Shown piece by piece: positions 50,583 to 54,659 of a DNA stretch of 64,000 bases. Each line of letters opens with the position of its first letter. Positions within the stretch are counted from its first letter, which is position 1. A program made the position numbers and the translations under genes. Under the pieces are notes generated by a model that saw only the letters and a program-made list of their open reading frames with translations, ran no database searches and was not told the origin of the DNA. The stretch is from Hydrolagus colliei (lineage: Eukaryota): assembly GCA_035084275.1 (NCBI GenBank), contig CM068756.1:15190001-15254000 (forward strand), written 5' to 3'.

Positions 50583-51286
50583 CTCAGGGACAATGTCTTA
50601 ATTGTTTTCCCTAGAGAAGACAGATTTTTGTTTTCTGTGCTGCAGTCATCTACCTCATTTCGGTAAAGTGTGAACTGTGTGACTACTTCAAAACTACATA
50701 AATTTATAGCAGACCTACCTCACTGCCTGCAGATGTTGGGCTGACTAATATTTGGAGATTTCCATGGAACTGTGCAAATGTATCCAGGCAATTGGTGCCT
50801 TTATCACCTGAATCCAAAGACTTTTTTCTTAGTATTAAAAATTGTCCTGTAGCTTTATTTAAAAAAAACAAAACACTCAGGTAGGATGATGATTGTGGGC
50901 CACTTCTATAGCCTAAAATGGCCATTTGTGGGTGACTGGTCAAGGCTTTGGCTGCCTACCTGCATACATTTTGTTTTCAGGGATTATTTGATGTTGAATA
51001 TCTTGTATGTTTAGCCCTACACTCTTTCTGAATGTAGCCCTACACTCCATCTGAATGTAAACAAAATACCTCTTTTTTTATATATAAATATATATAGGGT
51101 GTAATGTTCTTTGGCCTGATGCACATAATGGTGAACATAGAAGTTGTTGAGGGTTCTTCTGAGTGTTTGTTGGGGTTTATGTAAAGGAAGACTTATATTG
51201 TCAGTTGATAACCCTGAAGATTGCAAAAAATATATTGAGGCATCTGGGATAATCAAATATATTACCTCAAGTTAACTGCTACCTCA
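50583..51286 (+). promoter_or_regulatory. Proximal miRNA-site cluster (let-7 and miR-125/lin-4)
   Basis: let-7 8mers CTACCTCA at 50650, 50715, 51279; 7mer-A1 TACCTCA at 51263; 6mer at 51067. miR-125 8mer CTCAGGGA at 50583; 7mer-A1 TCAGGGA at 50977. Confidence 0.85.
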
Positions 51287-53819
51287 GGTACCTGCTGAAC
51301 CTGCATAAAATTAATTTCCTATGTTGGTAGGCTGAATTTGGTCTTGGCGGCAGTATTACTTTATGAAGTGTGAATAGGTTGACTTTTTTAAAAAATGACT
51401 ATCGCTTTTCCTTGGGTCTCATTTAAGCTGGAAGGAAGAATTCAGGATGGGCGAAGGCCACTGATCAGTGCTTGCTGTGCTACTGTCTCATAGACGTACC
51501 GTTGGCATATGCTGACAGGAAGTGATCTAATCCCTCTTAAGTAAAAAACCTCTTCCAGAAGAGCTCAATTGAGGGATTGTGGATTTGTGTACGAGTGGTT
51601 ATCATTTCTGTTGTATTCTAGGCAGAGCTGGTCTGTCCTTAATTGATGGAGTGGGAAGTATTTTGGCGTAAAAAAAATTCATATGCCCAATCCTGCATCT
51701 CAAACAGGGTTAGCTCTTCACGTTTCTGCATGATTTGCCCCCTGTATGCTGCACCTAATAGTGGCAATGTTATGAAATGGCGATGGTTGCAGATTGGGGT
51801 GCCCATGAGTATTCCAATGAATTCAGGAGAAGAATTCTGAATGTACACAGTATAGTTTTGTGAGTAGAAATCTGGGTAGAATCTTTACTTTCCAGCACTG
51901 AATCTTTCACTAGGTTTTTTTGTTCACCTCTTAATCCAAAAAGGACCAATTAGGTGACAATTAGGATCATTTTAAACAAATATTGAAAAATCACAGCCTT
52001 CTCCTAAATGCAGATTTTTAGAACAAAATTAACTATCGCAGTATTTTTTACAAGTGAAAAACGGCAGCATTAAAACATCTTATAGAAACTACACTGAATA
52101 TTTATGCAAAACTGAAATGGTGGAATTATCCTTTTCAACTCCCAATACTTTATTTTTATCTTGTGTTCTAAAGGACTTGGGTGAAGTGGGAGAGAAAGAT
52201 GTCTGAGATCCCGTTTCAGTTTTACTTGGTTTCAAACTATTCACTCACCACTACCTGAAAATATGTATCCAGCCGTTCTGTATAAAATAACATTTCATTG
52301 CAATAATTAGCAAGCACTTGCATTGCAGTAGGAAGTCGGCTTTAGATGTGATTTAAAAACTAAATAAATAAACCCTGAAGCTATTGCAAATTAGGTCTTT
52401 GAATAACCGATCAAAAGGGTGTGACCAATTGTGTCAGGAGGCCCATTTTGGGTGCATCGCTGAATTGGAGTAACCTCCTGAATTGGTTGAATTTTTCTGA
52501 GAAAGCATTAGTGTTGCTAAGCAGCCTGACAGAAATTAGCTTACCGGGCATTATACCCTTCGCACAGGGTTGAAACATCAATGTTCCAAGAACTAATGTT
52601 GCTCAAACTGTTCCTCCAATTTGTTAGTTTTTATCAGTTGCTTAGTTGCAAAATCTGACTTTGGTGATTGGGGTTGGGGGGTGATCGAAGAGTATAGAGG
52701 AATATCTTGGAATTTGAGTTTAAGGACCTGATCATGAAGCAGAGCAGCCGCTAACTTGCTGATTGATGGAGGCAGAAGACAGGGCAGGAAGGAATTGGAA
52801 GAAGTTAATGTCTAAATTTCTGACCCGCTGAGTGTTCCCAGCGATTTCTGTTTCTAAATTTCTTGCTGCTTTTTAAAATAAATTCATGTGATGAGATTGA
52901 AAAATCTCTTTAACATTGACCAGTCTTTATTTCAAGGCTTGGCATCCTGTCTGATTGGTGGGTAGGTTGTCTAATGGATCTACTGAGCTTTCTTGATGGC
53001 AACTGGTTATTCTACTGTTTCGGGTTGCTCAAAACCATTTGTTCTGACTTGGTTAGATTGTTGTAGTATAGAATGGCTTTTGATTTACACATTGTGAATT
53101 GAGCAGTGGTTAATGATTGGTGAAATTAAAATAACTACACTAAGGAATCTTTTTGCCCCACCTTTTTGCATATGTAAATGTTTCTTTAGAGTAACAGTTT
53201 TTTAAAAAAATCTTATGAAGTTTAGTTCCTGTAACTTGAAAGCTGTATCCTGACTATCCTGTTTATGTGATTTCAGCTCTGGATGGGCTGCTTCAAGGGC
53301 ATGTTGTCTCTTGAAGCCATTATTTTTCTTAACACATGTTTATAAAAACAAGGCAAGCACACACTTTGACTATCAAGTTATTTTCTTGGCAGTCCCACTT
53401 GGGGTGTGTTTTTTAAAAAAAACACTGAAGTCAAATGCAGAACATAAAATGCAGAACATAGTTTCAACATAATTAAGCCTTTTTTTTTACAAAACTAATT
53501 CTTCAAAAGAAATGTTTGTTTACAGACCAAATGGAAGTCCATTATTGCGAAGGTTATACTTAAGTTTTAGATCAAAATCCTATGGAATGGATACTTCAAA
53601 ACATTGACAAAGGGGAGAGTCCCTAATTAAAACCAAAGTGTTCAAAACGGTTTTCTAGATGCCAGTGGTTAAGGTCTGTTCATGTGATTCAAAATAGCTA
53701 GCCAGAAAAATTGCAGTTAAGACCTCTGATCCAGTAATGTGCATTGGATTGTTTGTGTGGCGAACATTTCATATTGAATTGCTAATGTGAAGCACAATTG
53801 TAGCCTTCATCCTTCACAG

Positions 53820-54018
53820 CAGGGTGGTCCAACTGGCAGCCCCCGGCCGATTTAATCCAGCCACCCACCTTCCATTTCGTTTGGCCCACCCGCTCCCTCC
53901 ATAACCCGTAAGCGTCGTGCTTCTGGGAGGGAAACACAAAAATATTGCTGATGTGGACCACAGACATTTATCAATTGGGTCATCTGGCCCCCAGCGGCCA
54001 AGAGGTTGGACCACCCTG
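53820..54018. mobile_element. hAT (Charlie-like) MITE, 199 bp, inside the predicted 3'UTR
   Basis: Perfect 14-bp TIRs CAGGGTGGTCCAAC (53820-53833) / GTTGGACCACCCTG (54005-54018). Right flank CTCTAGAG fits the Charlie target preference; left flank CTTCACAG is a degenerate 8-bp TSD. Confidence 0.8.
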
Positions 54019-54445
54019 CTCTAGAGTGATCAGTCTGAGCATCCAGTTCAGTGAAATACTTCAGCAAGGAGCAGAATCCAGTGTTTGGAATGATGCTCTT
54101 GAACCTATTGGTTTTAATAAAGAGTTATAAGCTATTGATCTGAAACGTTGTGGTGGCCTTCTTAAAATTGAAAAGTGGATTATGGAATACTTACTTTCAA
54201 GTTACTTTCCATTGATTGTGCTGTTCAACTCAATTCAAATGGTTGCCACAACATGCATAACTTTTATATTTAAATTTGAGGTATGCAATGTCGTTTTGTA
54301 ATTGAACCCCCACCCATATTTGTTTATCTTGAGAATTTTCAGAAAACCATTTCATCCAGCCCCACGTGCAGGTATAAGATAGTTTGCTAGAAGTGCTTAA
54401 TGGATTATGTTTGTAATTCTTAGTTTAAAATCAGCCACAGTACCT

Positions 54446-54659
54446 TACCTCAAATAAACCTGAACTGATCGCAGATCACCTTGCAGAACCCATGAAGCCA
54501 ATATTTCAGAGATTGGGATCTAAATGATACATAAATCTCAGGGAAGTGATCCCCAGTCTCTGAAGGTAAAGGGATGCAAGGTGTAGTTCTGGTGCCTTGG
54601 CTGGTAATGACTTTTGTCTACCTCTGTGCTTCTGTCTGCAGCAGCTTAAAACTACCTCA
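54446..54659 (+). promoter_or_regulatory. Distal miRNA-site cluster (let-7 and miR-125)
   Basis: let-7 7mer-A1 at 54446, 7mer-m8 at 54618, 8mer at 54652; miR-125 8mer at 54537. Confidence 0.75.

Follow-up and report, generated by a model that had tools for sequence, protein, structure and literature searches.

How does a cartilaginous fish switch off its lin-41/TRIM71 gene, and which TRIM71 does it actually possess? These questions are raised by a 64,000-nucleotide stretch of the genome of the chimaera Hydrolagus colliei (assembly GCA_035084275.1, contig CM068756.1, positions 15,190,001 to 15,254,000 of the forward strand), here called the window. It holds the only lin-41/TRIM71-type gene that we detected in this genome, and the gene ends in a 6.1-kb tail, which is its 3'UTR (3' untranslated region), with nine matches to let-7 and three to miR-125. 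We are largely confident that these matches are likely to shut the gene down on differentiation, and that, with respect to human TRIM71, the gene is likely a twin from a genome duplication and not an ortholog.

The sites all lie on the forward strand, as do the exons of the gene, the conserved UTR block, the AATAAA at 56628 and the TMEM208 exon, and fall into a proximal and a distal group. The proximal group opens with a miR-125 8mer (50583..50590), 57 nt 3' of the stop codon and beyond the ~15-nt zone, as in canonical targets. The let-7 seed matches that follow are two 8mers at 50650..50657 and 50715..50722 (the second predicted to be open, 0.97 unpaired), a 6mer at 51067..51072, a 7mer-A1 at 51263..51269 and another 8mer at 51279..51286; among them, a miR-125 7mer-A1 (50977..50983) sits within a conserved block at 50853..51039. 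The distal cluster packs four sites into 214 nt: a let-7 7mer-A1 (54446..54452), a miR-125 8mer (54537..54544), a let-7 7mer-m8 (54618..54624) and a let-7 8mer (54652..54659). A last let-7 6mer is found at 56501..56506. An earlier note, written from the letters of the window, had listed these 12 sites, and all 12 were recovered at its coordinates and on its strand; the nine let-7 6mer cores in 50527-56645 were likewise all (9/9) on its list. Absent from that list was a miR-99/100 7mer-A1 at 56472..56478, 173 nt before the end of the UTR—with 0.085 such matches expected, it is not significant alone. A miR-125 7mer-m8 also occurs at 50309, in the coding part of the last exon, and no Pumilio element was found in the UTR.

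Each of the two miR-125 8mers borders a let-7 cluster, and two pairs of let-7 sites are closely spaced: the seed starts lie 17 nt apart in the pair 51263/51279 and 34 nt apart in the pair 54618/54652. The cooperative spacing claimed for these pairs therefore holds, both distances falling within the 13-35 nt optimum given in a passage of PMC1874663; all remaining adjacent sites are spaced wider.

For let-7, the number of matches is far above chance. Four 8mers occur in the 6119 nt of 50527-56645 against 0.058 expected from a first-order Markov model (P 4.6e-7), along with nine 6mer cores against 0.91 expected, and none of 5000 dinucleotide shuffles reaches four 8mers, seven sites of at least 7mer grade or nine 6mers. 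The let-7 words rank first among the 2491 6-mers, 4372 7-mers and 5465 8-mers present in the tail, and no other UTR word approaches them, allowing for word number. The antisense strand of the tail has no let-7 8mer and a single site of 7mer or better; the introns (33 kb) have no 8mer on either strand. As a real background we used 246 windows of 6119 nt, taken on both strands from 0.8 Mb of other DNA of the same genome: none exceeds two let-7 8mers, compared with four in the tail, and sites of 7mer or better, of which the tail has seven, reach six in one window and five in two. Against this background the excess is slightly less extreme than against the shuffles, let-7 7mers being commoner in it (0.71 vs 0.41 per 6.1 kb). 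That difference, together with the one window that reached six sites, is what speaks for an array without regulatory role, brought together by chance or resulting from base composition or repeats. Such a reading is largely refuted by the shuffles and genomic windows; the sites moreover lie on the sense strand, outside repeat-covered stretches, in a gene family that is the founding let-7 target, and we find it scarcely credible.

The miR-125 component is more modest. Two 8mers are reached in 13/5000 shuffles and matched by 1/246 genomic windows, and three sites of 7mer or better are matched by 57/5000 shuffles, whereas the miR-125 6mers are at chance level (488/5000); the miR-125 hypothesis was named beforehand, and these values carry no correction across microRNA families. 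The description of the tail as a dense array for both microRNAs thus stands fully for let-7 and in weaker form for miR-125. Given such numbers, it may be asked whether only the let-7 sites matter, chiefly the proximal ones, with the miR-125, miR-100, 6mer and distal sites being bystanders or confined to a minor long isoform. The two miR-125 8mers, both bordering let-7 clusters, argue otherwise; the remainder of this question turns on how far the transcript extends and how well the distal sites are conserved.

The 3'UTR is placed at 50527..56645 by RNA contigs and stranded poly(A) reads. The contigs (X1-X3) come from a relative, here relative A, that differs by ~4-5% in the coding part and ~6% where the distal sites were compared, and are presumed to be RNA; the raw reads (X10-X12) are recorded as RNA, represent one sample of an organism C and are mostly at least 99% alike to the window. 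The X1 contigs begin at an exon boundary and cover 49073-52063 and 53482-56618. In the poly(A) reads the first mate falls nearly only on the minus strand, which in most stranded libraries marks RNA of the plus strand. Cover in X11 is unbroken over 54100-56647 at a depth of 8-39 and drops to 0.04 past the end; X10 is thin, with nearly all bins covered from the last exon to the UTR end. The stranded poly(A) reads reach ~56645, just past an AATAAA at 56628..56633 that, to judge from the end of read cover, serves as the poly(A) signal. The sites are thus part of transcribed plus-strand sequence 3' of the stop, and not outside the mature mRNA. The repeat-rich stretch 52064-53260 is not spanned by any single record; the evidence for one continuous UTR is good but does not come from one molecule. 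Within that stretch, 52508-53175 is repeat-derived, with contig depth above 1000; it is probably an old SINE/LINE tail, and the RNA contigs break there.

The several further AATAAA hexamers in the tail, and a fall in X2 contig depth from 13-19 to at most 2 past ~54180, would fit a shorter main transcript lacking the distal cluster. An early poly(A) site at AATAAA 54116 was considered on the basis of this fall and rejected: a contig gives no information on transcript ends, and in X1, which is from relative A too, the contig seems not to carry the hexamer. At AATAAA 54453 and 54876, read depth gives no sign of use. In X1, X3 and X10-X12, the distal UTR is covered at the same depth as the remainder, which speaks against a minor long isoform. 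Two further observations concern this part of the tail. A word resembling a cytoplasmic polyadenylation element (54112-54121) overlaps AATAAA 54116; it is probably not functional, since it appears to be missing in relative A. A 200-nt element at 53819-54018, with 14-nt terminal inverted repeats, recurs elsewhere and is diverged but present in relative A; we take it to resemble a hAT-type miniature transposon.

Comparison with relative A agrees with function of the sites, short of proof. Between X1 and the window, 54174-54798 shows 40 substitutions, and the X1 piece has 29 deleted letters; the four distal sites are free of both. The base adjoining the 54618 site, 54625, does differ. The distal cluster region differs at 11/290 nt, with 16/227 and 13/108 in its flanks. 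Upstream, the block 50853..51039 that contains the miR-125 site at 50977 has no substitution and one 7-nt deletion, at 50863, in X3. The proximal UTR as a whole (50624-51233) seems more conserved than the coding exon, at ~15 substitutions per 600 nt by subtraction of contig counts; this conservation exceeds what seed matches explain, and an AU-rich nonamer lies at 50855.

Several points weigh against an array that works in full. Predicted accessibility varies among the sites (0.17-0.97 unpaired), whose flanks are 53-73% A+U: five of the 12 sites, including the 51263/51279 pair, are predicted to be mostly paired (0.17-0.26 unpaired). The distal cluster lies ~2 kb from the 3' end, and in long UTRs sites so placed tend to be weaker. 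Statistically, the miR-125 excess is far weaker than that of let-7; no single read or contig links the stop codon to the distal cluster. The conservation comparison covers four of the 12 sites individually, plus 50977 by its block, and random placement of changes would leave the four distal sites clean 11% of the time (P = 0.11, one relative); 10 inserted letters in the X1 contig are not displayed. The chance-level miR-125 6mers and this P value fit a role for let-7 sites only; the tight grouping of four unchanged distal sites and the even read depth do not. On balance we consider a let-7-only role unlikely, and prefer control through both microRNAs and both clusters.

The microRNAs themselves are encoded in this genome, where nine let-7 hairpins score above the Rfam cut-off. 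On one strand of sequence C37, within ~12 kb, a mir-10-family hairpin with the miR-100 sequence is followed by a let-7 hairpin and then a miR-125 hairpin. The Rfam lin-4 model matched nothing in this genome, nor in any control; to locate miR-125 we combined a 12-nt pattern (82 matches) with position in the C37 cluster, and the sequence so located folds as a hairpin that scores below the Rfam gathering score. The names miR-100 and miR-125 are our assignment by mature sequence. The seeds of both agree with those printed in a section of PMC11977657.

That let-7 and miR-125 repress lin-41/TRIM71 can be found in textbooks, so the array as such is ordinary. All sites in the tail are of the seed type, lacking long 3' pairing: the longest Watson-Crick run past position 8 is 2-5 nt (counted without a control). 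The two let-7 sites of C. elegans lin-41, in contrast, match the seed imperfectly and pair over a long stretch of the microRNA's 3' part, so that the nine perfect-seed matches of the chimaera are not compensatory sites of that kind. The family, the microRNA and the occurrence of sites in pairs are common to both, the worm sites being LCS1 and LCS2 (PMC1874663). The same paper recounts work by Kloosterman et al., in which a zebrafish reporter required both let-7 sites. According to excerpts of other papers, let-7 and miR-125 rise in zebrafish as LIN28 falls and lin-41 declines (PMC3916362), the sites are conserved across bilaterians (PMC4382986), and human TRIM71, with a UTR of ~6 kb, falls after miR-125b/miR-100 or miR-99a mimics (PMC11977657, PMC8962266).

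The strong microRNA repression that the earlier note proposed for this gene is what we infer by analogy with these species. In early development, LIN28 would hold let-7 down and the mRNA would be translated; later, let-7 and miR-125 would rise, and Argonaute would bind the two site clusters, mostly by seed pairing. The two close site pairs would act cooperatively, and the mRNA would be deadenylated, silenced and lost by decay in differentiating cells.

The protein places the gene in the LIN-41/TRIM71 family. Coding exon 1 (15296..16057, in a CpG island) encodes the RING domain and B-box 1, as supported by tblastn, a CpG scan, Pfam matches to zf-C3HC4 and B-box, and the splice model. Exon 2 (33283..33450) encodes B-box 2 and the start of the coiled coil and exon 3 (46705..46839) the coiled coil, both placed by tblastn and the splice model. 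The coding part of the last exon (49075..50526, stop at 50524-50526) encodes a filamin domain and six NHL repeats by Pfam. The splice model allows three acceptors for the last exon, and RNA contigs aligning from 49073 fit 49075. The frame is intact over 838 codons in four coding exons, and this complete LIN-41/TRIM71 architecture is matched best in the PDB by TRIM71. Last-exon protein identity is 99% to Callorhinchus milii TRIM71, ~95% to sharks and at most 77% to bony vertebrates among the best 120 of 1978 matches. Two arginines, R578 and R766, occupy the same context as mouse R595 and R783 on the RNA-binding NHL face, where mutation lowers RNA binding in results given in part of PMC9910693. 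That the gene is functional, as the earlier note had argued from its sites, is evident more directly from the uninterrupted reading frame, from RNA contigs that are spliced and from the retained arginines of the RNA-binding face.

A second TRIM71-type gene was not found in two whole-genome searches, in which 21/21 and the best 54/287 candidates were scored. An NHL match on C14 (45%) was rejected as a second TRIM71. It belongs to a different gene (C14:6280868-6284100) with RING, B-box, coiled coil and NHL parts and no filamin domain, of which an identical-looking copy exists on C308; its NHL part scores 381 bits against Drosophila Thin and 243 against TRIM71, marking an invertebrate-type TRIM-NHL gene closest to Thin. 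We know of no gene of this type in mammals.

Databases name the cartilaginous gene TRIM71, and the earlier note took it to be TRIM71 itself; membership of the family is borne out, and by tree and gene order the gene is more likely a paralog. A careful tree of 20 proteins and 720 columns, 19 of the proteins chosen from the best 120 matches, has two clades, each at 100/99, and a quick tree gave the same split. Clade A holds the ray-finned fishes, the tetrapods, and the TRIM71 proteins of coelacanth and lungfish; clade B holds the window gene, the sharks, and the proteins of coelacanth (XP_006001234) and lungfish (XP_043937363) that NCBI labels TRIM71-like, as it does the Amblyraja gene. The vertebrate clade that unites A and B stands at 100/100, which fits a duplication after the invertebrate-deuterostome split and before that of cartilaginous and bony fishes. 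Forcing the cartilaginous genes into clade A costs 19.6 log-likelihood units and is rejected by the approximately unbiased (AU) test (p-AU 0.004). Nine derived columns are common to the cartilaginous genes and the coelacanth TRIM71-like gene, against one shared with clade A. In a fast tree of 204 proteins, left after four short ones were dropped from 208, clade B has 23 rows, including all 11 named cartilaginous species, and clade A has 154, none of them named as cartilaginous; the unnamed rows of clade A nest among teleosts or mammals. The proteins came from two lists, the 120 best of 1978 matches and the 120 best of 240, so a rare exception may have escaped.

Gene order points the same way. 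Along C23, the sequence that carries the gene, the order is an anillin-like gene, KIAA0895-like/MATCAP, a helix-hairpin-helix gene, TMEM208, the TRIM71-type gene, LRRC29 and ELMO. The upstream neighbour within the window is a TMEM208 exon at 4497..4667 (Pfam TMEM208_SND2, E 2.7e-9). The helix-hairpin-helix gene, at C23:15171639-15172574 on the minus strand, has its domain from Pfam and is one we take to be EEPD1-like; it has a 58% paralog on C2. There, the paralogs of this gene (21.53 Mb) and of ELMO (21.85 Mb) lie together, as a genome duplication predicts for a paralogous block; in comparing such ohnologs we have assumed the human positions of EEPD1, ANLN and ELMO1. Presumably the EEPD1-like and anillin-like genes of the 16q22-like block are likewise ohnologs lost in humans. 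In the parts of the literature that bear on these neighbours, human ELMO3 adjoins LRRC29 at 16q22 (PMC8220202), a table for goat groups KIAA0895L, ELMO3 and TMEM208 (PMC11213886), and human TRIM71 lies at 3p22.3 among CNOT10, CCR4, GLB1 and DYNC1LI1 (PMC4967518). The C23 neighbours match the human 16q22 block, and not the 3p22 block in which a TRIM71 ortholog would be expected.

Markers of the 3p22 type occur on C2. Dynein light intermediate chain (DLIC) copies exist on both C2 and C23, and a GLB1-family gene on C2; against human LI2 the DLIC exons score 136 bits (C23) and 124 bits (C2), in a comparison that holds no LI1 sequence. A V-ATPase a-subunit gene adjoins the C2 DLIC gene at C2:121.34-121.35 Mb. 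No CNOT10 exon was recognised in the 200 kb around the C2 DLIC gene, and a MARVEL search did not resolve the CMTM clusters. No remnant of a canonical TRIM71 appeared in whole-genome searches or in tblastn of 570 kb (three C2 blocks); its loss is not proven, because its expected place is not known.

A competing view is that the sites work and the gene is a plain TRIM71 ortholog. On this view it changed chromosome in cartilaginous fishes, and a tree artefact causes it to group with the TRIM71-like genes of coelacanth and lungfish. The database name, the fact that it is the only copy found and the long branch of lungfish TRIM71-like (0.58) would suit this, and some of our evidence is open to challenge: the group for the AU test was named after the quick tree, the tree has no lamprey, hagfish or amphioxus sequence, and gene order was compared in this genome, human and goat. 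It fares poorly against the AU test, the nine derived columns to one and the paralogous C2 block; coelacanth TRIM71-like has a branch of 0.2, which is not long, and in coelacanth the two genes are found on sequence records of different length, 188 and 384 Mb. We judge a displaced ortholog to be quite improbable.

Most simply, and likely, the two copies are ohnologs that were lost reciprocally. From tree and gene order, a duplication older than the divergence of cartilaginous from bony fishes would have given copies A and B; cartilaginous fishes would have kept B, the gene described here, ray-finned fishes and tetrapods A, and coelacanth and lungfish both. We lean towards a full exchange of copies of LIN-41, an essential developmental timer, in which sharks, rays and chimaeras lost the human-type copy, humans lost the other from between TMEM208 and LRRC29, and miR-100/let-7/miR-125 control of ~6-kb UTRs predates the duplication. 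The last point would follow from both copies having kept a ~6-kb UTR that is presumably read by all three microRNAs of the cluster.

Seen beside vertebrate TRIM71/Lin41 of mouse, human and zebrafish, the chimaera gene has the same architecture, four coding exons (as in human, per part of PMC4967518), a ~6-kb UTR, matches to let-7, miR-125 and miR-99/100, and both arginines; it differs in its separate clade and its 16q22-like block, and is known here from sequence. Its likely true orthologs are the TRIM71-like genes of coelacanth and lungfish, which share its clade (100/99); these fishes also retain canonical TRIM71, and their TRIM71-like copies are more diverged. No paper on a TRIM71 ohnolog split came up in our literature searches, whose coverage leaves out most subscription journals. 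A database of jawed-vertebrate ohnologs (PMC13450315) may itself list the pair; one of its supplementary files does not contain the gene names. PMC5381642 does not mention the gene. Elsewhere in the window, two Rfam tRNA matches (24123-24194 and 58149-58213) are likely heads of tRNA-derived SINEs, as the second lies within a very high-copy repeat.

The array, then, adds one more lineage to a known regulation, and what goes beyond this is the likely identity of the gene as the other ohnolog. If the paralogy is true, comparative studies that treat cartilaginous "TRIM71" as an ortholog or take it for an outgroup are using a hidden paralog. Two long-separated copies with the same let-7, miR-125 and miR-100 input would also allow us to ask whether selection holds site number, pairing and UTR length. 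The question could be put most directly to coelacanth and lungfish, which have both copies, one of them perhaps in the course of losing its sites. As a natural experiment, the two UTRs would then bear on which properties of a microRNA switch are indispensable.

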